A stretch of DNA of 64,000 nt from Escherichia phage DT57C. This document shows, piece after piece, positions 9-58,983 of the stretch (its first letter is position 1; every line of letters starts with the position of its first letter). The position numbers and the translations under genes were made by a program. The notes under the pieces are model-generated. The model was not told the DNA's origin, did no database searches, and saw only the letters and a list, made by a program, of their open reading frames with translations. The stretch lies in sequence record NC_027356.1, one strand, 5' to 3'.

Positions 9-1835
9 ATGACAGAGAATGAATTAATTGAGAATTGCAAAGGTCTGCTCACTCTAACTGCGGATAAAGACTTACAACATAATAATGCTAATAAGCCTAG
101 TGAGATGTTCCATACTCAAAGAGACTTATTGGCCGGAGAAATCAACAAGTATCTAGTATCGCAGGAATTACCCAAACATCTATTAGACGCCCATAATCTA
201 GGTAAGATACACATTCATGATATGGATTACAGAGCGCAGGGGTACACTAACTGTTGCTTAGTAGACCTTGGTGGCATGCTGAAGAATGGTACTAAAATTG
301 GTAATGCAAATATTGAAACTCCTAAATCCATAACTACTGCGTGTGCAATCACTGCTCAGATTATTGCCCAAGTATCTGGTGCTCAGTATGGTGGCACTTC
401 TATTGATCGTATCGATGAGGTTCTAGCACCATATGTCAGAAAGTCTTACAATAAACACCTGGGTCGTGGTCTACGTTGGCTCAAGGATGAAAGAAAAGCT
501 GCTGTGTACGCTACTGAGCTTACTGAAAAAGAGTGTTATGATGCATTCCAAGCCCTAGAGTATGAAACTAATTCATTATTTAACTCTAACGGACAGACTC
601 CTTTTGTTACGCTTGGCTTTGGGCTAGGACAGGGGTGGGAGGAAAGGATGATTCAGAAAGCCATCCTCCAAAACCGTATTAAAGGTTTAGGTGCTGCTGA
701 GTCAACCCCTATCTTCCCTAAACTAGTATTCTCAGTTAAAGAAGGATTAAATAAAAATCCAGGCGATCCTAACTACGATATAAAACAGCTAGCACTTGAG
801 TGTTCTGCTACCCGTATGTACCCGGACTATTTAAGTTACGAGAAAGTTGTAGCTGTTACTGGTGATTTTAAAGCCCCTATGGGTTGTCGTAGTTTTTTAT
901 CTGCCATCCCCTCTGGAGAAACCGCAGGGCGTAATAATTTAGGTGTTGTGTCTATCAATCTACCTATGGTTGCTGCTGAGGCAGATGGAGTTTTTGAAGA
1001 TTTCTGGGATATTCTAGACAAATATGTGGATGAGGCTTTTGAAGCGCATGACTTCTTCTTAAACAGACTGAAGAAAGTTAAGGCTAAACAAGCCCCTATT
1101 CTTTATATGCACGGTGGTTTTGGTGTGCGTTTAGATGGGGAAGAGTATGTATGGCCTATTTTTGAAGGTAGATCTTCTGTATCTCTTGGGTACATTGGGG
1201 TCTATGAGATGTGCCAAATAATGTTTAGTCTACCACAAACTCATAGGGACTGTATTGAATTTACAGAGGAAGTTCTCACTCACCTAAAAAATCGTTGCGA
1301 AGTTAAAGCTAATGAGACTAATCTTGGGTTTAGCTTGTATGCTACTCCTAGTGAGTCTCTATGTAATCGCTTTAATAAACTACTGGAACGTAGATTCCCA
1401 GAGTATTCTTGGTTAACAGATAAAGGCTATCTTACTAATAGTCACCATTTGGACGTAAGAGAGAAGGTAGCTCCAGATACTAAATTTGAGTATGAAGCTC
1501 ATTTCACCAAAATAGCTAATGGTGGTAATATATCATTTGTGGAACTACCACAAATGAAAAAGTTCCATAAAGCTCTTGAATACGTAGTAGATAAGGGACT
1601 AGAATGTAGCCATTATATTGGTGTTAATATACCGATTGATGAGTGCTTCAACTGTGGGTATATGGGTGAATCTGTTGCCTCTGAACGTGGGTTTGTATGT
1701 CCGAGTTGTGGATCTGAAGAAATAGAGGTTACACGTAGGGTTTGCGGGTACCTGGGGTCCCCGGGCAGTAGGCCTTTCAATTCTGGGAAACAAAAAGAAG
1801 TGCTTGGTAGAGTAAAACACTTAAATCTTAAGTAA
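9..1835 (+). CDS. nrdD: anaerobic ribonucleoside-triphosphate reductase (class III RNR, NrdD)
   Basis: 608 aa; C-terminal glycine-radical motif RVCGYLG; Cys cluster CFNCGYMG...CPSCG; in-frame stop at 3-5 so the ORF starts inside the window. Confidence 0.9.
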   Translation: MTENELIENCKGLLTLTADKDLQHNNANKPSEMFHTQRDLLAGEINKYLVSQELPKHLLDAHNLGKIHIHDMDYRAQGYTNCCLVDLGGMLKNGTKIGNANIETPKSITTACAITAQIIAQVSGAQYGGTSIDRIDEVLAPYVRKSYNKHLGRGLRWLKDERKAAVYATELTEKECYDAFQALEYETNSLFNSNGQTPFVTLGFGLGQGWEERMIQKAILQNRIKGLGAAESTPIFPKLVFSVKEGLNKNPGDPNYDIKQLALECSATRMYPDYLSYEKVVAVTGDFKAPMGCRSFLSAIPSGETAGRNNLGVVSINLPMVAAEADGVFEDFWDILDKYVDEAFEAHDFFLNRLKKVKAKQAPILYMHGGFGVRLDGEEYVWPIFEGRSSVSLGYIGVYEMCQIMFSLPQTHRDCIEFTEEVLTHLKNRCEVKANETNLGFSLYATPSESLCNRFNKLLERRFPEYSWLTDKGYLTNSHHLDVREKVAPDTKFEYEAHFTKIANGGNISFVELPQMKKFHKALEYVVDKGLECSHYIGVNIPIDECFNCGYMGESVASERGFVCPSCGSEEIEVTRRVCGYLGSPGSRPFNSGKQKEVLGRVKHLNLK

Positions 1836-1843
1836 GCTAATCA

Positions 1844-1875
1844 GCCAGGTTGCTAGTCGACCTGGCTTTTATTTT
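1844..1875 (+). terminator. rho-independent terminator after nrdD
   Basis: 7-bp stem AGCCAGG/CCTGGCT followed by a T-run. Confidence 0.6.
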
Positions 1876-1877
1876 AT

Positions 1878-1906
1878 TTGCTTTCAGCCAAAAATTTATA
1901 TATAAT
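1878..1906 (+). promoter_or_regulatory. T5-type sigma70 early promoter
   Basis: TTGCTT, 17-bp spacer, TATAAT; AT-rich upstream; conserved downstream AAATTTGAGAGAGGAG. Confidence 0.65.
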
Positions 1907-1934
1907 AGATTTGTAAATTTGAGAGGAGAAAGCT

Positions 1935-2147
1935 ATGAGGATTCATAAGGTAGATAAAGATCGTATCTATTTTGTTATGGACTCCGGAGCATATGGATCT
2001 ATTCTAAGAGAAGATGTTACTAAATTTTGCTTAGTAAATACTTGGATGGATAAGGAGAAGATTGACCCTAGATCAGGCATATGCTTATCGGAACCAGCTC
2101 TTTTAATTGCAAATGCAGAAATTGAATTGTTTGAGGACATAGAATGA
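1935..2147 (+). CDS. hypothetical protein (70 aa)
   Basis: ORF directly downstream of early promoter; ATGA overlap with the next ORF. Confidence 0.4.
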   Translation: MRIHKVDKDRIYFVMDSGAYGSILREDVTKFCLVNTWMDKEKIDPRSGICLSEPALLIANAEIELFEDIE

Positions 2148-2374
2148 AAAACGTAAAACACCTTAAATATCGTTTAATCTATAACGGACGTATGGAAACT
2201 GAAGAGCTAGCTCAATTAGCTATTAACTCTAATGAGGTTATGGTGCGTGCGCTAGCAATTGAAAAGTTGCGGGCTTCTTATGAAAGTCATATTATGGAAC
2301 TAGAGGAGAAACTTTATGGACTTCTCGAAGCCGAAGCTAGAAGCAATCCAGAGGACAGGCCTACTAAGCAATAG
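2144..2374 (+). CDS. hypothetical protein (76 aa)
   Basis: translationally coupled ORF. Confidence 0.4.
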   Translation: MKNVKHLKYRLIYNGRMETEELAQLAINSNEVMVRALAIEKLRASYESHIMELEEKLYGLLEAEARSNPEDRPTKQ

Positions 2375-2427
2375 AAGGTATGTATATGGGGAGTAATTTT
2401 ACCTCAAAACATTATCGAAGGATTTAA

Positions 2428-2700
2428 GTGAGGGATTGTACAGTGTTTTTGACTGGTAATACCAGTCAAGATATGATTATTGTGGTTGGTTGCTCTAACC
2501 AAGTAATTAACTTCTACTGGGAATTATTCCCTGTTCTTAACCGTACTGCTGCGAAACTTATGGTAGTTAACTACTATGATGTATCAGTATCCAACGGTAG
2601 AACTGGAATAAATCTTCAAGATTTAAGAGCTGTTAGCTATATGCTAGAATTTAGTCCAGATCTTGAAATGTGTAAAGCCCTACAACAATTTAAGGTGTAA
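2428..2700 (+). CDS. hypothetical protein (90 aa)
   Basis: ORF in early operon. Confidence 0.4.
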   Translation: MRDCTVFLTGNTSQDMIIVVGCSNQVINFYWELFPVLNRTAAKLMVVNYYDVSVSNGRTGINLQDLRAVSYMLEFSPDLEMCKALQQFKV

Positions 2701-2702
2701 AT

Positions 2703-3131
2703 ATGTTTAATAATGTATTCTCTAAAGAAGCTAACCCAATATTGGTTAATTTTTGGCGTACTCTTCCAGACAACCTGTACAATGAGGCTATTAATGCTCT
2801 GAAAATATGGTGTGAGAATAATGAAATCTCCTTTGCTTTTAAGGGTGAGATTGAAGAAGCTCCCTGTATTGGTTTAATTGTGCAGGTAGAGGATGATCTG
2901 GAAGAGATTGTCGGATGGAAAGAGTTGGATGAAATGGGATTGGTTTTTGCATTAAACTATAAGCTGTTTATGCCTAATAAACACCGTATTGTTGTTAATT
3001 ATAAAACCAGTGAATCTCCGGGCTTTCAAGTTAATGAACATTACGGTTGGTCTTACTCACCGGAAGAAGTAAATGATGGTATCCAAAGACTTCGTCGTTT
3101 TGGTTATCAAATTCCGGGTTTAACCGCCTAA
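2703..3131 (+). CDS. hypothetical protein, tandem paralog 1 (142 aa)
   Basis: shares PC(I/V)G, W.EL.EMGL(V/I).ALN..LF.P and Q(I/V)PGL blocks with the adjacent ORF. Confidence 0.55.
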   Translation: MFNNVFSKEANPILVNFWRTLPDNLYNEAINALKIWCENNEISFAFKGEIEEAPCIGLIVQVEDDLEEIVGWKELDEMGLVFALNYKLFMPNKHRIVVNYKTSESPGFQVNEHYGWSYSPEEVNDGIQRLRRFGYQIPGLTA

Positions 3132-25260: not shown

Positions 25261-25495
25261 TTTTACTGATCCTAATGGGGTAGACTTAGACTTAGCTGAA
25301 CCTACTAATTTCTATCATGTGGCTGTTGCTCAGCCTGATCTTAACAAAATTGTACTTAAAGTCGATATGTTTGGTAATGTGGAACATTGGGATGAGGAAG
25401 GATTCTTGAACTTATGTAATGAGTCTCAAGACCCAACTCTCAAAGCCCTGTTAGCCGTATACAATTTAGGTATTATCAAAGGAAGTAAAGATTAA
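25223..25495 (+). CDS. hypothetical protein (90 aa)
   Basis: last ORF of the early operon before the bidirectional terminator. Confidence 0.4.
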   Translation: MEKVDLEAQEVSNFTDPNGVDLDLAEPTNFYHVAVAQPDLNKIVLKVDMFGNVEHWDEEGFLNLCNESQDPTLKALLAVYNLGIIKGSKD

Positions 25496-25496
25496 T

Positions 25497-25540
25497 AAAA
25501 AACCCCCAGTGGACAATCCACTGGGGGTTTTTTATTTATT
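25497..25540. terminator. bidirectional terminator between early (+) and late (-) modules
   Basis: 11-bp perfect stem CCCCCAGTGGA/TCCACTGGGGG flanked by an A-run and a T-run. Confidence 0.75.
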
Positions 25541-25717: not shown

Positions 25718-28084
25718 TTATTTCGCTGCCTTCAGCGCGGCTATCTCTGCCTTCAAATCCTCGATTTGCTTATTGAGATACTGCACACAACCCATCAAAT
25801 CCATAACGATCGGGTTTACATCCACCGACGGCCTGTCGCGGGTCTTACCACCGATAATAGCGTTAGTCTCTGGGTCCACCTCCACATCGTACGTCTCTTC
25901 TCGATGTTTGATGTATTGAGGTGCAATCGCTTCAGCCTCCTCGGCAATTATGCCGAAGCGGACGCGCTCCTGCACATCGTCCTTATACACGTAGTTCACC
26001 ATGCGCATTTGTTCAATACGTGCAACCGCTTCTGTAACGTCTGCATTGACAATATCTTTCTTAAAGTCCCGCCCCGATGTGCCTTGCAAGGCAAGAACAC
26101 CACCAGATGAAGGCCAGTTGATTGTAATGCCAGTGCCGTTTCCCTTCTCAAAATATTTATAGATCTGGTTACTATTGATATTAACCGAATCCCACATCGT
26201 GCGGAAATTACCAGCCGGGACTGAATCTTTTGCGTTGTGTAGAACGAAAGACTTCACCGGACCGTCGGTAGTCGGGCGAATGGTTATATCACGGGCCCAC
26301 ACTACTCCGCCTGTTCCCGCTCCGGGGATCTCCACGACGGTATCTCGGTACGCGCCCGACGCGTCATATGATTGCAACTTAAAATTGCCCGAAGCGTCGT
26401 TAATCCCCATACGCCAGCGTACTTTATCGGCGGAATCCGCCCAACATACACCGTCAAAATCGGAGTTCACCGAGTTCACAACTATACTATTCGGTATAGT
26501 TAGTTTACCTGTTTCGTCAAAATCCAGATTCGCGCTTCTTTGTGTGGTACTGTTCGTTACGGAAATACGAGCAGAATAGTTACCGCCGATATCGGCACGG
26601 GCACAGAAACTAGCTTCAGCCTCATTGGCGCCACTAATCTTGTACAATGAGAATATGTTACCACCTTGAGCAATTGTGCCGTTAGCTGGACGTGTCGCAT
26701 CACCATTGATCACACTCCAAGACGTATTCGCCGCCACGAACCCGCCTGACGCTCGAATAACCCACACACCCATGAAGTTATTTGGACGCAACTCCGTTAC
26801 GGTCCGACCATAGATCGCGCTGACCCTCGAGGCGTCCAGGTTAATGATGCCGTAGGAGACCGCGCCGCTACTAACAGTTAGGTTGCTTGGCGTCCGATAT
26901 TGCGAATCCGCGCCACCAGACCCATGGAACGCGCCACTTTCACCGTTGATAATACTTGCGGACCCGCCGCCGTGTAATTCGACGCGGCCTGTGATGTTAG
27001 GTGCTCCTGATTCGTAGATATACCCATCGTTGCCACTTTGCCCGCCGTCCCCCCGGCAGAACAAGCCGAATATTGACCCAGGCTGAACACCATTACGGTC
27101 TGGCACTCGGAAGGTCGTTGTGCCGTCACCAGTAGAATACTTGCCGCGCTGATTTGGGTTAGCCAGCCAGGTAGCGTCACTAATTGGCGATAGCATTTGC
27201 GCATACGCCCAGAGTTCGGGCCAGTCAGCACGATTCAACAACTGACCATCACTCACCACCTCGTACGGCTGAATGTATGCGCGACTATCCCGCAGGTGAA
27301 AGTCACCTACCCCATAGTTCATAACGCCATTCATGGTAGGTCCAACTGTACCAGTGTTAATCTTATTCTCTACCCAACGTTTGGTTACAGCATCGTAGTC
27401 CCCCACAGGGTCCCCCGCAAGAGGGGTGGACCCTTGTGGTCTTACAACGTCCCATAAAGCTTCTCTATTATTTACCCCGGTACCCCCTTGTTCAACCGGG
27501 AGTGCTAACCACTCATTCTCTGTATCACTATAAACTCCCCAAGTACCATTATTTTGAATAGTTAATCTAGAATTCTTATCACCACTGTAGATTATGGTTT
27601 CTGTTTCGGACTCCTGACTAAATCTATCGAGTTCCAGTGCGGTTTTAGCCCCCTCTAGTGTAGAAGAACCAGTACCACCTTGAGCAATCGTAATAGCCTT
27701 AGTAAGCGCATTTAATTCTGTAATATCATTATTAGCACCTTTAGCAGCTTTAGCTTCGAGACTGGTATCAACTTCATCTAGCTTAGTATTAATACCTTCA
27801 ATAGAGGTATTAATGCCGCCTAAAGCGGTATTAATATTACCAACAGACTCGTTAATACTGCCAATAGATGTATCGATTCCATCAATACGAGTATCAATTC
27901 CAGTTAAACGAGTATTTAATTCTTCTTTATCTATAGTGTAGTTAGATATTTGAAGATACTTGGAGGTTAGTGCAACAGCACCAGCCTCCCCATCAACAGA
28001 GAAAACGCCTGCAACCGCAGCATCTCTGTTAACTACAACGTATGGCGCCATTGCGCCGGATTTAGGCATTAATGGTCTAGACAT
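25718..28084 (-). CDS. ltfB: L-shaped tail fibre protein B with C-terminal intramolecular chaperone domain
   Basis: 788 aa; tail-collar-type receptor-binding module; C-terminal chaperone/autoproteolysis domain (VRFGIIAEEAEAIAPQYIKH...VDVNPIVMDLMGC); shares long modules with LtfA. Confidence 0.75.
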   Translation of the reverse strand: MSRPLMPKSGAMAPYVVVNRDAAVAGVFSVDGEAGAVALTSKYLQISNYTIDKEELNTRLTGIDTRIDGIDTSIGSINESVGNINTALGGINTSIEGINTKLDEVDTSLEAKAAKGANNDITELNALTKAITIAQGGTGSSTLEGAKTALELDRFSQESETETIIYSGDKNSRLTIQNNGTWGVYSDTENEWLALPVEQGGTGVNNREALWDVVRPQGSTPLAGDPVGDYDAVTKRWVENKINTGTVGPTMNGVMNYGVGDFHLRDSRAYIQPYEVVSDGQLLNRADWPELWAYAQMLSPISDATWLANPNQRGKYSTGDGTTTFRVPDRNGVQPGSIFGLFCRGDGGQSGNDGYIYESGAPNITGRVELHGGGSASIINGESGAFHGSGGADSQYRTPSNLTVSSGAVSYGIINLDASRVSAIYGRTVTELRPNNFMGVWVIRASGGFVAANTSWSVINGDATRPANGTIAQGGNIFSLYKISGANEAEASFCARADIGGNYSARISVTNSTTQRSANLDFDETGKLTIPNSIVVNSVNSDFDGVCWADSADKVRWRMGINDASGNFKLQSYDASGAYRDTVVEIPGAGTGGVVWARDITIRPTTDGPVKSFVLHNAKDSVPAGNFRTMWDSVNINSNQIYKYFEKGNGTGITINWPSSGGVLALQGTSGRDFKKDIVNADVTEAVARIEQMRMVNYVYKDDVQERVRFGIIAEEAEAIAPQYIKHREETYDVEVDPETNAIIGGKTRDRPSVDVNPIVMDLMGCVQYLNKQIEDLKAEIAALKAAK

Positions 28085-28122
28085 TTTATTACCTTGTAGG
28101 AGGGCCGAAGCCCCTTTCTTTT

Positions 28123-31100
28123 TTATTCCTTAGATTCTAGTTCTGCAATACGCGCTTCCAGAGCCGCTATTTTTGCATTAAGCGCCTGAACACACCCCAT
28201 CAGGTCCATGACGATTGGGTTGACGTCGACGGAAGGTCTGTCCCTTGTCTTCTCGCCAATCTTATTCCCTTCTTCGTCAAGAATGTCCTCGTAAGATACC
28301 TGATTATGTTTGATGTATTGCGGAGCGATCAACTCTGCTTCTTCAGCAATCACACCGAATCGAACACGTTCTTGTTCATCATCTTTGTAGACGAAGTTTA
28401 CAAGGCGTTGCCCGTTAATTCGGTCCATAGCCTCTTGGGCATCAGCGTCTGTAACATCCTTTTTGTACTCAATGCCCGACGTACCTTGTAGCGCGATGGC
28501 CCCGCCGGTGGTTGGGAACGAGACGATGATCTGCCCCGCTTGGTTGCCATCCCCGCGTCGCCTGATAAGGTTAACGCCAGACACATTCCCATCTGTACCA
28601 GATACCTCAATAATCGTACTCCCGCCGATCTGCGTAGCAGGTGTGTTATACCGATTTGATTTAAAGTTTATGCCAGGCCATCCCTGGTTCTGGATAGTAA
28701 GATTACCATCGGAGTAAATTGCTCCCTTAGAGTGCAGGTTTTCCGCTGAGAAAGTGCCTAGATCATTAAAGTCGTAAACGGCGGTGCGGTTGGCGGTGGC
28801 GTTATAAACGTTCAAACGTGCGTAGTGTTCAGCCCCGATCTGCGCTCGTATACGCCAGCTCATTTGCGCTTCTCTAACGCCGTTAACGTTATAACGTGAA
28901 ATGATTTCGCCGCCGTCAGCAGTTGTACCGTCAGCTGGACGCGTCGCATCACCGTTAATCACAGACCACGACGTATTCGCAGCAACAAATCCGCCCGATG
29001 CACGAATCACCCAAACGCCAGTGAATGCTTTGGGTCTGACTTCTGTTGAACCTCTACCATAGACTGGGCTTGAATTTGATGCGAAGAATTCAAACCCAGA
29101 AGGATACGTCGCTGCAGTACCGTCAGCTGCAGATATCTCTGACAACCTTTTATATTTTGCTTGTGATAAGACAGCAGAGAATGCACCTGTCCCTGTGTTG
29201 GCTTCATAAATAGTGCCTGTTGACGCGTAAACCAATCGGCCAAATGAGCCTGTAATGTTTGGTGCAGCACTGTCAAGAATGGTCCCACCAGTAGATGACG
29301 CCCCGCCATCACCACGCCCAAACAGTGCAGATATTGAACCTGTTTGAACGCCGTTTCTGTCGGGCACACGGAAAGTCGTTGAGCCATCGCCAAGAGAATA
29401 CTGACCGCGCTTTGTTGGGTCAGCAAGCCAATCAGCATCAGAAATAGGGGAAAGCATTTGAGCATAAGCCCACAACTCAGGCCAATCAGCCCTGTTAAGA
29501 AGCTGGCCATCAGAAACTACCTCATAAGGTTGAATATACGCACGGCTATCACGAAGGTGGAAATCACCTACACCATAGTTCATGACACCATTCATTGTTG
29601 GCCCTACTGTACCGGTGTTAATCTTATTCTCTACCCAACGCTTAGTAACAGCATCGTAGTCGCCAACAGGATCACCAGCCAGCGGCGTGGAGCCAATCGG
29701 ACGCACGTTAAGCCATGCGGCAGCACGATCTGCCAAATCCGAAAGGTTATTAGCTTTTAATAAGTAATCAGTATCTGACTGAGTTTTAGCGTCTGCTAAA
29801 GCAGAATCAACCTCCACCTTAGTATACGTGGTAGCAATATCAGCCTTATCTGCTAAAGCAGAATCAACTTCCGTCTTAGTATACGTGGTAGCAATATCAG
29901 CCTTATCTGCTAAAGCAGAATCAACCTCCGTAGTACTATATAACTCGAGGGCTATACGGGCGTCTTCTTTAGTTGTTGCACCAGTACCGCCTTGGTTAAT
30001 ACTAACAGTACCTTGTAGTGAGGTATCAATTTCAACGTTACCAGTTATAGCATCTGGAGAGATACCATTAACTGTCACAACATAAGGAATCTGATCTTTA
30101 ATAACGCCAGCATCTTCTTCGCCTTTAGTTGGTGCACGGAATGCCTGTCCTTGCATCATATCTGGTAGACGGAAGGTTGTGGAGCCATCACCCGTAGAGA
30201 AGTAAAGAGACGCACCGGCTTGCCATTCAGCTTCTGATACAGAAGGAATTAAGCCAGCCTCAATAGCCTCCCAAGTATCTGGATAGTCTACACGAAGAAC
30301 TTCACGGCCATCAGCAGGAAGAACACCAGGGTAGCCAACACCTGAATCTTTATCATAAGGGAACCAAGTAACTTCACCCAGCCATAAAGAGGGGTTACCA
30401 CCAGGAAGAGTAATCTGTACGTTACCTGCGTCATCTGCACGAACGTTGTTAACAGAAGTTAGCTTTTGCTCTGTTTCTACTAACTCTAATACTGGAGTCT
30501 CAGCAGTTCCAGCTACTTTGTACCACCCATATTTTGAGTTAGTTTGGTTCCAGACTAGAACCTTTTCGTCTAGCACACGGTTTACAACATCAGCATCAGC
30601 TTCTGCTTTAGTCTTATAAACTTTGATAAAACCAGAAATATCTACTTTATCAAGTTTACTATCAACAATCTGAGTTGCACGATCTGCCTCAGCTTTAGCA
30701 CGATCTGCCTCAGTAGTAGCATCGATAGCTTTATCACCGGCTTCAGTAGCAGAACCAGCAGCATTAGTTTCAGAAATCTTAGCGTTTAGTTCTGATTGCC
30801 TTGCAGCAGCAGCATGTTCGCCAGCAGTGGTAGCAGCAGCATCAGCCCCATCTTTAGCTGTTTCAGCACCAGTCTTAGCAGCTTCTGCAGCTGTTTGAGC
30901 TTGTTGCGCAGCTGTTTTAGCTTGTTCAGCTAGTAAACGACTTTGTTCAGCATTCTGCGCTGCCAATTCTGCAGAGTCTCTAAATCCCTCTGATTCTTGC
31001 GCAGAAGCTGCAGAATTATCTGCACTACCCTTAGATAAACCAGCTTGCCTTTCAGATTCAGCAGCAGAAGCCGCTGATTGAGAAGCAGATTCCTCAGAAG

Positions 31101-31353
31101 CTCCAGCAGAAATAGCAGCTTCATTTTCAGAATCCTTTGCATTTAGTTCAGATTCTTTTGCTGCTATTTCAGAACCTTTAGCAGCAGCAGCGGATCCTGC
31201 AGAGGCCTCTACAGCAGCAGTTAATTCACCAGCAGTAATAGAACTAATAGAATTACCTAAAACTACTGTATATTTAGGATACTTACTAGCAGTAGTTGTA
31301 GTGTCATCTATGTTCAGAATCTGCTGTACAATAATTTTAGTTTTAAGTGCCAT
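28123..31353 (-). CDS. ltfA: L-shaped tail fibre protein A with C-terminal intramolecular chaperone domain
   Basis: 1076 aa; Ala/Glu-rich coiled shaft; two tail-collar-like modules; same C-terminal chaperone domain; adjacent to collar gene. Confidence 0.8.
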   Translation of the reverse strand: MALKTKIIVQQILNIDDTTTTASKYPKYTVVLGNSISSITAGELTAAVEASAGSAAAAKGSEIAAKESELNAKDSENEAAISAGASEESASQSAASAAESERQAGLSKGSADNSAASAQESEGFRDSAELAAQNAEQSRLLAEQAKTAAQQAQTAAEAAKTGAETAKDGADAAATTAGEHAAAARQSELNAKISETNAAGSATEAGDKAIDATTEADRAKAEADRATQIVDSKLDKVDISGFIKVYKTKAEADADVVNRVLDEKVLVWNQTNSKYGWYKVAGTAETPVLELVETEQKLTSVNNVRADDAGNVQITLPGGNPSLWLGEVTWFPYDKDSGVGYPGVLPADGREVLRVDYPDTWEAIEAGLIPSVSEAEWQAGASLYFSTGDGSTTFRLPDMMQGQAFRAPTKGEEDAGVIKDQIPYVVTVNGISPDAITGNVEIDTSLQGTVSINQGGTGATTKEDARIALELYSTTEVDSALADKADIATTYTKTEVDSALADKADIATTYTKVEVDSALADAKTQSDTDYLLKANNLSDLADRAAAWLNVRPIGSTPLAGDPVGDYDAVTKRWVENKINTGTVGPTMNGVMNYGVGDFHLRDSRAYIQPYEVVSDGQLLNRADWPELWAYAQMLSPISDADWLADPTKRGQYSLGDGSTTFRVPDRNGVQTGSISALFGRGDGGASSTGGTILDSAAPNITGSFGRLVYASTGTIYEANTGTGAFSAVLSQAKYKRLSEISAADGTAATYPSGFEFFASNSSPVYGRGSTEVRPKAFTGVWVIRASGGFVAANTSWSVINGDATRPADGTTADGGEIISRYNVNGVREAQMSWRIRAQIGAEHYARLNVYNATANRTAVYDFNDLGTFSAENLHSKGAIYSDGNLTIQNQGWPGINFKSNRYNTPATQIGGSTIIEVSGTDGNVSGVNLIRRRGDGNQAGQIIVSFPTTGGAIALQGTSGIEYKKDVTDADAQEAMDRINGQRLVNFVYKDDEQERVRFGVIAEEAELIAPQYIKHNQVSYEDILDEEGNKIGEKTRDRPSVDVNPIVMDLMGCVQALNAKIAALEARIAELESKE
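29790..29934. repeat. 57-bp tandem repeat (about 2.5 copies) inside ltfA
   Basis: unit AGTATACGTGGTAGCAATATCAGCCTTATCTGCTAAAGCAGAATCAAC... encoding repeated TEVDSALADKADIATTYTK. Confidence 0.8.
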
Positions 31354-31775
31354 TATTGAGTTACTCCATCGCTGATGTATACTTTACCTTCCATAATACG
31401 GAAAGAACTGACTTCAGAGCCAATTACATCACGAGTCATTAGGATATCATAATAACCCGCAAAGCGTTGTCTTGGGTTATACTTATCACGTTCTTTAGAT
31501 GCTTTTTCACCAATATTAGTAACGTCTGCAACGGAAAGACTAATTGCAGCAGCACCTTGAGCAGCATCAATAATACTAGTAGTAAAAGATGCCAAAGTTT
31601 CCGCGTTCTCGTCTAAGCTAGACTTAATAGTTCCACGAAGTGAATAACCTGTTAGATTAACAGGTATTTCAGAAGGAGGGTATACACTATCATCAACATC
31701 CATAAATTGCATGATAAGACCATAAGGCACTTTCTCATCAACAACAATATCAATTACTCTATTTTCAGTACTCAT
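31353..31775 (-). CDS. tail collar protein (T5 p132-like)
   Basis: 140 aa; immediately upstream of and coupled to ltfA; size and position match T5 p132 (memory). Confidence 0.55.
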
Positions 31776-57318: not shown

Positions 57319-58983
57319 TTACGCGAAAAATTTGCCGTTTTTAAAGTCGATTAACGTGCGCTGCCCGTTTGCATATGTAATTACATGCGTTTGCGTCCAG
57401 CTTGATGCGCCGACGTTGTAGCCCATATCGAGGCTGCCCGATACGCCAGCAGTATATACGCCGCCGTAAATGCTGGCGGTATGGGTGTGCCCCGTGTTTA
57501 ATTTGCCCAACTTTTTAAATTGCTTCGGATTGCCGCGGCTCCCGTTGATGCCGTTGTGACCGTGTACGCCGCACTCAATGCCTGCAATCTTGAATGATTG
57601 ATCAGTCGTTAGGAATATGGCGTTAAACTCACAGCCTGCAACCTTGCGCAGCGCATAATCCAGCACGTTGAAAGTATCGTCATTTTCTGCAATAGCTCCA
57701 TAGATCGCGGCGTTGAGGCGGTGATATAGCTCTGCGTTTGCTGGATCGTCTTTAATGTTAGCGTTGCGATCATCCAGCCAACGGGATAACGCCAGATCGT
57801 GGTTTGACTCAACAATGATTGTTTGCGAGAAATCGCGCTCCATTGATTCCAATACACGCCCCGTGTCGATAAGATCATCTAAAACCTTATCACGTCCGGC
57901 GGCGTACTGTTTTGCTAGGAATACGCCAGATGCGCGATTGTGGTGGTTGCGTGATGTAAAGTCATGCACATCATGCACGAACTGATATTTAGGTTTAAGA
58001 ATATCAAGCAAACTATTTTCGCCCGCCCATGACGCTTCAGCACACGCCTTATCTAATTTTTCAGCGTGCACGTCGCCATACTGTAAACCTAAAACATGCC
58101 CCGATGTTTCATAACATCCGGCGGGAGTGGCGCAAATATTCAAATCATAAAAAACGCCGGTTTCATCCATCGTCTCAAGCTGGCGAACAAAAAATGCCCC
58201 GTCCTCGTCAAACTCGACAATCAGCGCGCCAAAGTTATGTAACGCTTCGGCCTTTTGCCCTGCTTTCTGCTGAATGTAGTTTTTTAGCGTTGCCGCTCCC
58301 GTTGAGTACATACGGCGCACTACTTCACCTTTGAGCGCTGGAACGCTTTCTGCGGTGATTTTAGCTGCTCCAATTGCCAAACCTTCAAGATCAAGCGCTG
58401 TTGCAGTCTCAGCGAATCCAGAAAGCGGGTAGTCTGCCGTTGGCAAAACATTAATCTCAGCCATGAAAGCAAAGCGGCGACTATTTAAAAACACGTTTTT
58501 ATTACAGATATATTTATCAAAAGCGGAATCATATTTGATCCCGTCCGCACCTTCTCCATTCTGGAATCCTTTTTTGTTATAAATGAACTTGCTAACCAGC
58601 AAATCAGCGCCGATAAATTGGGCGTAATGTTCAAGTGAGGCTAAAAAGTTTTTATGCGGGAACGTGTTGTTCTGGATTGATGTTATAATGAAGCGTTTGC
58701 CCTGCTTTACTTCCCACTGTTCAACCGTGCTAGAAATAATTCCCGCCGCCTCTGGGCGCTCGTCGTTTTTAACGGCTTTTGATGCTTTCGCCTCTTTTGG
58801 TTTCGCTGGTTTGTTTGCTTCCAGCCAATCACAAATTGCGGTCGAATGTTTTGCCGTATCGTACACCGCTTTTGATATATCGTCGCAGACTTCCAATCTA
58901 GTAGCGCGCAGACGTTTACCGTAAAAATTAAAATCAGCGGCCAGCTTCAGGATAACGGTTTGTTTTTCTGCGGAAATAACCAT
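57319..58983 (-). CDS. A1: A1-like pre-early protein (metallophosphatase-fold nuclease-like)
   Basis: 554 aa (T5 A1 is about 556 aa, memory); metallophosphoesterase-like motifs GDVHAE, GHNG, GHTH. Confidence 0.65.
   Translation of the reverse strand: MVISAEKQTVILKLAADFNFYGKRLRATRLEVCDDISKAVYDTAKHSTAICDWLEANKPAKPKEAKASKAVKNDERPEAAGIISSTVEQWEVKQGKRFIITSIQNNTFPHKNFLASLEHYAQFIGADLLVSKFIYNKKGFQNGEGADGIKYDSAFDKYICNKNVFLNSRRFAFMAEINVLPTADYPLSGFAETATALDLEGLAIGAAKITAESVPALKGEVVRRMYSTGAATLKNYIQQKAGQKAEALHNFGALIVEFDEDGAFFVRQLETMDETGVFYDLNICATPAGCYETSGHVLGLQYGDVHAEKLDKACAEASWAGENSLLDILKPKYQFVHDVHDFTSRNHHNRASGVFLAKQYAAGRDKVLDDLIDTGRVLESMERDFSQTIIVESNHDLALSRWLDDRNANIKDDPANAELYHRLNAAIYGAIAENDDTFNVLDYALRKVAGCEFNAIFLTTDQSFKIAGIECGVHGHNGINGSRGNPKQFKKLGKLNTGHTHTASIYGGVYTAGVSGSLDMGYNVGASSWTQTHVITYANGQRTLIDFKNGKFFA

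Follow-up and report, generated by a model that had tools for sequence, protein, structure and literature searches.

The lateral tail fibres of DT57C and DT571/2, two T5-like siphoviruses, have been described as branched structures built from two proteins, LtfA and LtfB (Golomidova et al. 2016, Viruses 8:26, PMC4728585; Ayala et al. 2023, Nat Commun 14:8205, PMC10713586). These proteins differ in the O antigen that they recognise, the specificity being O22-like for DT57C LtfA, O87 for DT571/2 LtfA and O81 for LtfB (PMC4728585). The baseplate of DT57C has been solved by cryo-electron microscopy (cryo-EM; 8HQZ), and in this structure a third protein, LtfC, forms a ring of twelve subunits through which the N-termini of nine LtfA chains are threaded (PMC10713586). 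The C-terminal halves of LtfA and LtfB are related in both protein and DNA, and the direct repeats resulting from this relationship were expected to make the locus a recombination hot spot (PMC4728585). The genes, the chaperones, the branch model, the specificities, the direct repeats and the fusions between the two genes are all already published for this phage.

We analysed this locus in a 64,000-nucleotide (nt) stretch of DNA of Escherichia phage DT57C (NC_027356.1), called the window below, to which all coordinates refer. The analysis followed up an original prediction, made from the sequence, that positions 25718-31353 carry two L-shaped tail-fibre genes sharing receptor-binding and chaperone modules. 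It is highly probable, in our view, that this region corresponds to the ltfC-ltfA-ltfB lateral tail-fibre locus of the T5-like siphovirus DT57C, and that it encodes a branched fibre in which variable regions (VRs) set into a conserved scaffold provide the specificity. Our main correction to the original prediction concerns the long module shared by the two proteins, which appears to be a conserved scaffold flanking the specificity cassette and not the determinant itself. What we add to the published picture is small, namely the saturation of synonymous sites between the two copies of this module, the finding that each copy is nearer to those of other phages than to the other copy, and a crossover interval of 5 nt in the fusion derivative DT530(1).

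The lateral tail-fibre genes of DT57C

The three genes lie on the minus strand. ltfA (28123..31353) encodes the proximal, or trunk, lateral tail-fibre protein of 1,076 amino acids (aa), and ltfB (25718..28084) encodes the branch fibre protein of 788 aa; the sizes and positions of both open reading frames (ORFs) had been given correctly in the original prediction. Its assignment of the two genes to the L-shaped fibres of a DT57C-type phage is borne out by exact matches of both proteins to DT57C entries (YP_009149889.1 for LtfA and YP_009149888.1 for LtfB). LtfA also corresponds to chain d of PDB 8HQZ, to which it is identical over the ~957 residues displayed and, judged by score, over its full length (1-1076). 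The ORF of 140 aa that precedes ltfA (31353..31775) is ltfC (Pfam PF23926 LtfC, 57 bits), the stop codon of which overlaps the ltfA start codon by 1 base. LtfC is the collar protein that holds the LtfA N-terminus at the tail tip, and the gene is annotated likewise in DT571/2.

In the model that we favour, the LtfC ring at the tail tip holds the LtfA trimers by their N-termini, as shown by cryo-EM (PMC10713586), and LtfB trimers would dock via an adaptor of ~48 residues onto the middle of LtfA (about aa 223-471). The C-terminal parts of both proteins are made up, in order, of block 1 with a collar-like motif, VR1, block 2, VR2 and a Peptidase_S74 chaperone, which would assist the folding of the trimer and then be removed by autocleavage, predicted to occur just before Ser959 in LtfA and Ser670 in LtfB. 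Specificity would reside in the variable parts, with LtfA VR1 recognising the O22-like O antigen and LtfB recognising O81, and by means of the two specificities the O-antigen shield of two host types could be passed before a pb5-type protein binds BtuB. The conserved blocks would act as protein-level scaffolds that are common to many unrelated phages and bracket exchangeable specificity cassettes; despite a DNA identity of 76-81%, they also permit occasional crossovers between ltfA and ltfB, leading to a single fused gene.

Conserved blocks and variable patches in the C-terminal parts

LtfA 445-1074 and LtfB 126-786 align with 340 of 689 positions identical (~49%; BLASTP, 558 bits, E=0), and the longest identical run is 86 aa (LtfA 555-640 and LtfB 219-304, encoded at 29434-29691 and 27173-27430, respectively). 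A long internal module is indeed common to both proteins, as had been noticed; the 90-aa example quoted for it is the LtfB version, from which LtfA differs by one residue (VRPIGS vs VRPQGS).

The boundaries of the blocks were set from an alignment in which 32 diverse homologues were compared with LtfA 546-958 and the corresponding LtfB segment, the identity being scored per 10-residue bin; the chaperone (LtfA 959-1076) lies outside the scored alignment. Block 1 of LtfA (aa 546-685, 29299..29718), the scaffold that contains the second collar-like motif of the protein, is 73-98% identical in the 32 homologues. The identity drops to 7-35% in VR1 (aa 686-775, 29029..29298), except for two short conserved islands, and rises again to 55-97% in block 2 (aa 776-810, 28924..29028), the bin values being 0.78-0.97 for aa 776-805 and 0.55 for aa 806-815. 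VR2 (aa 811-958, 28480..28923), a variable distal domain rich in beta structure, is 12-38% identical, and the chaperone (aa 959-1076 with the stop codon, 28123..28479) follows it. The same order is found in LtfB. Its block 1 (aa 210-349, 27038..27457) is identical to the LtfA partner at 124 of 140 positions, its VR1 (aa 350-435, 26780..27037) at 31 of 90 and its block 2 (aa 436-470, 26675..26779) at 32 of 35, while VR2 (aa 471-669, 26078..26674) is ~50 aa longer than the LtfA counterpart and is followed by the chaperone (aa 670-788 with the stop codon, 25718..26077).

Both chaperones belong to the Peptidase_S74 family (PF13884, cutoff 22 bits): the profile matches LtfA 961-1012 with 32.1 bits (model positions 3-55) and LtfB 671-724 with 41.2 bits (model positions 2-56). 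For these two chaperones, a conserved autocleavage motif and predicted cleavage sites have been described (PMC4728585). The claim that both proteins end in the same intramolecular-chaperone domain thus holds for the family but not for the sequence, as only 76 of 119 residues are identical between the two.

Block 1 is not restricted to DT57C and its relatives. It is also present in fibres of other T5-like phages, of siphoviruses of ~45 kilobases (kb) resembling Dhillonvirus (bob, Envy and Sloth), of Kuravirus, of Wifcevirus and ~68-kb phages (ECO71P1 and TH32), and of T7-like phages (phiKT and PGT2). Because the same block 1 occurs in the fibres for the O22-like, O87 and O81 antigens, it is not the specificity determinant, and the suggestion that the shared module is receptor-binding does not hold up. 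Judging from its distribution and conservation, block 1 behaves as a near-invariant, generic structural scaffold used by no fewer than five groups of phages. The original prediction had named, as a finding that would overturn it, that the module is a generic structural repeat with no role in receptor binding, and this is largely what block 1 appears to be.

The variable patches behave differently. DT57C LtfA diverges from DT571/2 LtfA from about aa 690 on, with the exception of aa 778-807, and in VR1 only 31 of 90 residues are identical between the two. In contrast, VR1 of DT57C LtfA is identical at 74 of 90 positions (82%) to the fibre of the podovirus phiKT, which, like DT57C, infects Escherichia coli 4s, whereas VR2 is identical to the phiKT fibre at 42 of 148 positions. 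An identity of 82% to phiKT is also the figure published for the experimentally mapped recognition site (PMC4728585, section 3.3). This agreement places the determinant in VR1, and we consider LtfA aa 686-775 most likely to be the O22-like specificity determinant. By analogy, VR1 of LtfB is a candidate for the O81 determinant.

It is worth considering whether the shared module itself binds a receptor, for example a ligand common to the hosts such as a core element of the lipopolysaccharide (LPS), with the variable patches serving for fine-tuning. The module carries the tail-collar-like motif, and collar-type domains adjoin receptor-binding tips in some fibres. The retention of all 86 residues at saturated synonymous sites (see below) indicates a strong constraint, the source of which could be a ligand as well as a partner; furthermore, purified LPS inhibits adsorption only weakly, and the binding is not fully understood (PMC4728585). 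Nevertheless, DT57C LtfA, DT571/2 LtfA and LtfB carry the identical module and differ in host range in an all-or-nothing manner, and the host range switches when part of the downstream divergent region of ltfA alone is exchanged, as in a plasmid-mediated swap by recombination (PMC4728585). The module is, in addition, equally conserved in phages of Salmonella, of Shigella and of many E. coli serotypes, and the fibres are dispensable on rough strains (PMC4728585). We therefore regard direct receptor binding by the module as very improbable and keep to the reading of block 1 as a scaffold around the specificity patches.

Separately, we noticed that the Kuravirus LAMP (MG673519), for the isolation of which the same horse strain, E. 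coli 4s, served as host, encodes a gp15 (889-3024) with an LtfB-type N-terminus. The chaperone of this protein is identical to that of DT57C LtfA at 100 of 118 positions, and its VR1 at only 32 of 90. Going by these comparisons, LAMP gp15 appears to be another case of modules being shuffled among the phages of one community.

The motif GDG(S/T)TTFR(L/V)PD occurs three times in the locus, at LtfA ~385-400, LtfA ~651-668 and LtfB ~315-332. The first of these lies in a collar-like segment (LtfA aa 342-400, 30154-30330) located inside the Kuravirus-like region described below, and, when aligned, this segment and the shared module are 34% identical (E=2e-8). An extra tail-collar-like module in LtfA, as originally proposed, is thus present, but its match to Pfam is below the threshold. 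Each module alone scores 20-20.5 bits against PF07484 Collar (cutoff 24), over profile positions 38-54 of 57; the whole of LtfA reaches 25 bits, which are summed from weak stretches, and the whole of LtfB is not reported.

Anchoring and proposed branching of the fibre

The first 230 aa of LtfA (30664..31353) comprise LtfC-binding strands (about aa 1-39) and then an Ala-rich trimeric coiled coil, the helix of which begins at T40 in the DT57C cryo-EM structure (PMC10713586). This N-terminus matches PHROG families of T5-type fibres (aa 1-229, 1-241 and 1-442), and its first 80 aa are 63% identical to T5 Ltf (PMC4728585). Repeats with a period of 21 nt are found in this part of ltfA at 30673-30726, 30887-30926 and 31126-31185.

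The following region, LtfA aa 232-453 (29995..30660), resembles the proximal fibre protein of Kuravirus and is the proposed docking site of LtfB. It matches SU10 gp12 (PDB 7Z47_D residues 248-472; phmmer, E=4.9e-46), the protein that carries the distal protein gp13 in a two-protein fibre (PMC9509320), and homology to phiEco32 proteins has been reported both for LtfA 223-471 (to gp14) and for the N-terminal 45 residues of LtfB (to gp15; PMC4728585, section 3.2.2). The other half of the proposed interface is the N-terminal adaptor of LtfB (aa 1-48, 27941..28084). In a tblastn search yielding 234 records, this adaptor is 67-76% identical to the N-termini of Kuravirus fibres (EP335, IMEP8, Bas88 and others) and 82-98% identical to the products of T5-like ltfB genes. 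A PDB sequence search with the N-terminal 216 aa of LtfB returned only coiled-coil noise and the generic fibre motif 'GANSDIT..L..QGGTG'. The branched arrangement noted in the original prediction agrees with the published model, both halves of the interface being present by homology. From this homology and the mutant phenotypes (PMC4728585), we infer that LtfB docks on mid-LtfA via the adaptor. The tail core of DT57C contains no LtfB density (PMC10713586).

Repeats are found in the stalk parts of both proteins. In ltfA, a 57-nt tandem repeat in 2.5 copies (29792..29931; Tandem Repeats Finder score 259, 95% matches) encodes the 19-aa motif VDSALADKADIATTYTK(T/V)E at aa ~475-521, and the copy number of this 19-aa repeat differs among DT57C, DT571/2 and the ABF mutant (PMC4728585, section 3.8). 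In ltfB, the segment encoding aa 61-120 (27725..27904) has a periodicity of 7 residues, and 21-nt periodic repeats are located at 27786-27836 and 27862-27915. LtfB of DT571/2 is identical to that of DT57C at 751 of 788 positions, and the difference is confined to aa ~62-110, where gaps of 7 and 14 aa make the DT57C protein 21 aa longer. This segment is probably a coiled coil, and the difference of 21 aa probably reflects repeat slippage.

Several points weigh against the model of a branched fibre with specificity patches in a scaffold. The junction between LtfA and LtfB is not directly seen, the distal fibre being unresolved in the DT57C map (PMC10713586), and in the related SU10 fibre only residues 1-90 of gp12 were built (PMC9509320). 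The equation of VR1 with the mapped site rests on our reproducing the figure of 82%, and a contribution of VR2 is possible. The phage PGT2, isolated on the O81 host 3-104, was considered as support for the LtfB determinant and rejected: the scaffold is common to both (121 of 140), VR1 is identical at 37 of 86 positions, and VR2 is not shared. The autocleavage sites are predictions, and the 'tail-collar' label is weak, as it applies only at the level of the motif and falls below the threshold for each module. In addition, an AlphaFold2 monomer model of LtfA 546-958, based on an alignment of 34 sequences, had a mean predicted local distance difference test (pLDDT) score of 60.7, and a Foldseek comparison of this model with the PDB found nothing at E<=0.001, the weak likenesses being to T4 gp34 and Bdellovibrio fibre tips. 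Within the model, VR2 is all-beta (pLDDT 70-90) and LtfA ~615-675 is predicted with a pLDDT of 72-88. An intertwined fibre of three chains cannot be modelled as a monomer.

Age and origin of the two copies

By eye, the DNA at about 27310-27460 and 29570-29720 had been judged to be roughly 85% identical. This estimate stands for the in-register core (27310-27433 vs 29571-29694), which is 83.9% identical; the similarity stops at 27433, and over the 150 nt claimed the identity is 76%. For the whole of the block 1 DNA (393 nt, 27041-27433 vs 29302-29694) the value is 76.3%, for a second block (26661-26776 vs 28910-29025) it is 79%, and the longest exact match between ltfA and ltfB is 26 nt (29615-29640 and 27354-27379). 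For the 86 residues that are identical in the two proteins, 49 of the 86 codons differ, all of them synonymously, with a third-position identity of 0.45. At the four-fold degenerate sites in this stretch, 11 of 42 are identical, which is the random level and indicates saturation. The content of guanine and cytosine (GC) at third codon positions (GC3) differs as well (0.40 vs 0.54).

We also noticed that each copy has closer relatives elsewhere. The block 1 DNA of ltfA is closer to that of fp01, T5_ev219 and phiKT (80-81.5%) than to the ltfB copy, and the block 1 DNA of ltfB is closer to that of bob, JLBYU37, Envy and Sloth, phages of ~45 kb (82.7-83.5%), than to the ltfA copy. With synonymous sites at saturation, and with both copies standing nearer to fibre genes elsewhere than to one another, the two did not arise by a recent duplication, and the comparison of the block 1 DNA gave no sign of gene conversion between ltfA and ltfB. 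The two copies are thus best read as old, independently circulating alleles under very strong constraint at the protein level.

A recent tandem duplication inside this lineage, after which the variable parts diverged and the shared stretches were left as remnants, would explain why ltfA and ltfB are adjacent on the same strand, have the same block order and the same chaperone family, and share 86 identical residues. Besides the random level of identity at four-fold degenerate sites, the difference in GC3 and the closer relatives in other phages, the N-terminal halves speak against such an origin, since they are unrelated: a T5-type anchor and a Kuravirus gp12-like region in LtfA vs a Kuravirus gp13-like adaptor in LtfB. 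We hold this scenario to be highly unlikely and continue to regard the copies as separately circulating alleles.

The identity of the two protein modules is nonetheless unusual. Both DT57C copies equal the exact consensus over the 86 residues, whereas, among 100 homologous modules, the majority depart from the DT57C protein by 4-7 of these residues, and two such copies in one genome are uncommon; among 230 records of module-bearing phages, 12 have two copies. One may ask whether the 86-aa identity and the randomised synonymous sites reflect lineage-specific selection, imposed either by a shared folding or assembly partner or by the advantage of dissimilar DNA in resisting deletion by recombination. 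We consider this improbable; if it were true, ltfA and ltfB would be a 'recoded' paralogue pair in a phage.

Slightly more doubtful still is the proposal that the synonymous-only divergence was itself selected, the DNA being kept different, or the proteins being kept the same, so that the locus with its two genes is protected from deletion by homologous recombination. The combination of 0 of 86 residues but 49 of 86 codons differing, the limit of 26 nt on exact matches and the rarity of two exact-consensus copies in one genome would fit such selection, and fusions of ltfA and ltfB are deleterious on O-antigen hosts (PMC4728585). Nevertheless, the intragenomic DNA identity of 76-79% is in the range of random pairs between phages (75-83%), so that no extra divergence is seen, and the copies in Kenya-K38, an independent phage with two of them, are identical at 53 of 86 positions. 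The data are accounted for by ordinary, strong purifying selection acting on alleles that were acquired independently, and we retain this explanation, treating the identity of the DT57C copies as a lineage-specific coincidence or a weak signal of co-selection. A general rule by which the two scaffold copies of a virion must be identical was also considered, and was rejected on the basis of Kenya-K38.

In Kenya-K38 itself (OQ291035, 982-6422), a T5-like phage of Salmonella, the ltf region is annotated as several short coding sequences labelled 'long tail fiber', 'chaperone of endosialidase' and 'tail collar domain protein', which suggests that ltfA and ltfB were split by frameshifts or sequencing errors.

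Recombination between ltfA and ltfB

The duplicated stretches had been proposed as substrates for recombination between the two genes, and the fusion derivatives in GenBank confirm this. Two actual fusions are known, a natural one that appeared in the course of passage, DT530(1), and one obtained by selection, DT571/2-ABF (PMC4728585). The fusion genes (KU236381 and KU159289) map to the window, with the junctions located in block 2 for DT530(1) and at the end of block 1 for ABF. The DT530(1) crossover can be narrowed to a shared interval of 5 nt, ACCCA (29009-29013 in ltfA and 26760-26764 in ltfB, KU236381 1043-1047), assuming that the DT530 parent equals DT57C in this part (99.3-100% identity). 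This fusion was attributed to recombination between identical sequences (PMC4728585). However, the interval sits in a DNA block that is 81% identical, and the DT530(1) event was therefore homeologous or mediated by microhomology.

Base composition and surroundings of the locus

In windows of 400 nt, the mean GC content is 0.393 outside the locus (standard deviation 0.037) and 0.476 inside it, with a maximum of 0.568. The elevated values fall mainly in the parts encoding LtfB aa 215-788 and LtfA aa 551-955, in agreement with the original remark that the distal, module-bearing parts are GC-richer and mosaic. The part of ltfA encoding aa 1-230 has a GC content of 0.44 but a GC3 of 0.15, compared with a GC3 of 0.27-0.60 in the rest of the locus, and is thus extremely skewed between codon positions. 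A second GC-rich island (57.2-58.4 kb, up to 0.515) was considered as an exchanged cassette and rejected, as it corresponds to the conserved pre-early DNA-transfer gene A1, which is 100% identical to that of DT571/2; the A1 ORF (57319-58983, minus strand) lies in the terminal-repeat region and has no relation to the fibre cassettes. Over its first 25 kb, the window is 97.9% identical to DT571/2, which is also the best BLAST match to the locus, with a coverage of 78%, in a phage collection without the DT57C record.

The gene order ltfC-ltfA-ltfB is syntenic with DT571/2, with pb4/pb3 flanking it at one end and dut/D15/D14 at the opposite end. Upstream of ltfA and ltfB in the direction of transcription lie the ltfC ORF and large tail genes. 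On the other side, beyond a terminator, a plus-strand block converges on the locus and encodes SbcC-like, resolvase, flap endonuclease and dUTPase proteins. The terminator (25494..25536), found by a terminator scan and by reading the sequence, is a perfect, GC-rich palindrome, the stem of which measures 20 bp. It is flanked on either side by A/T runs, lies ~180 nt downstream of the stop codon of ltfB and looks like a strong bidirectional intrinsic terminator between the early plus-strand unit and the late tail-fibre unit on the minus strand. The 38-nt spacer between ltfA and ltfB (28085-28122) contains a small tetraloop hairpin on the coding strand (GGGGC-UUCG-GCCCU) with no U-run after it, and may be an element for RNA stability or processing rather than a terminator.

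Comparison with known systems

The locus is a textbook case of host-range widening, with two receptor-binding proteins per branched fibre and small cassettes swapped within a scaffold. For the engineering of host range, our analysis gives a sharper map, in that the exchangeable determinant is most likely a patch of ~90 residues (LtfA 686-775 and LtfB 350-435).

The LtfA/LtfB fibres of DT57C and DT571/2 in the literature are the same object as the one analysed here, and the gene order, the chaperones, the 19-aa repeats, the direct repeats and the fusion derivatives are as published. The fibre of T5, made of pb1 (Ltf) with p132/LtfC, is like LtfA in its N-terminal anchor, coiled coil, LtfC partner and C-terminal chaperone. 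However, T5 has a single fibre gene and no branch, whereas DT57C has two genes, and the homology is limited to the N-terminal part; the overall identity of LtfA to T5 Ltf is 22% (PMC10713586), and T5 pb1 was absent among the PDB sequence matches for the C-terminal parts of LtfA and LtfB.

The two-protein fibres of Kuravirus (phiEco32 gp14/gp15, SU10 gp12/gp13 and EP335 gp12/gp13) are homologous to LtfA 232-453 and LtfB 1-48, respectively, and the Kuravirus partner proteins also bear the scaffold module (63-70% identity) and the chaperone domain. These fibres are attached to the adaptor of a podovirus, whereas the DT57C fibre is attached to the tail tip of a siphovirus. The SU10 fibre has been described not as a branch but as a proximal and a distal segment with an elbow (PMC9509320), and LtfA, unlike the Kuravirus proximal protein, has its own receptor-binding end beyond the docking region.

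At the level of single domains, the tail collar domain of the T4 gp12 type (PF07484) is represented in LtfA and LtfB by the motif, only the C-terminal third of the profile being matched. There is also a likeness to the endosialidase-type chaperones (PF13884) of K1F endosialidase, GA-1 gp12 and T5 pb1: the LtfA and LtfB chaperones score above the family cutoff and start at the Ser of the conserved motif, before which cleavage is predicted.

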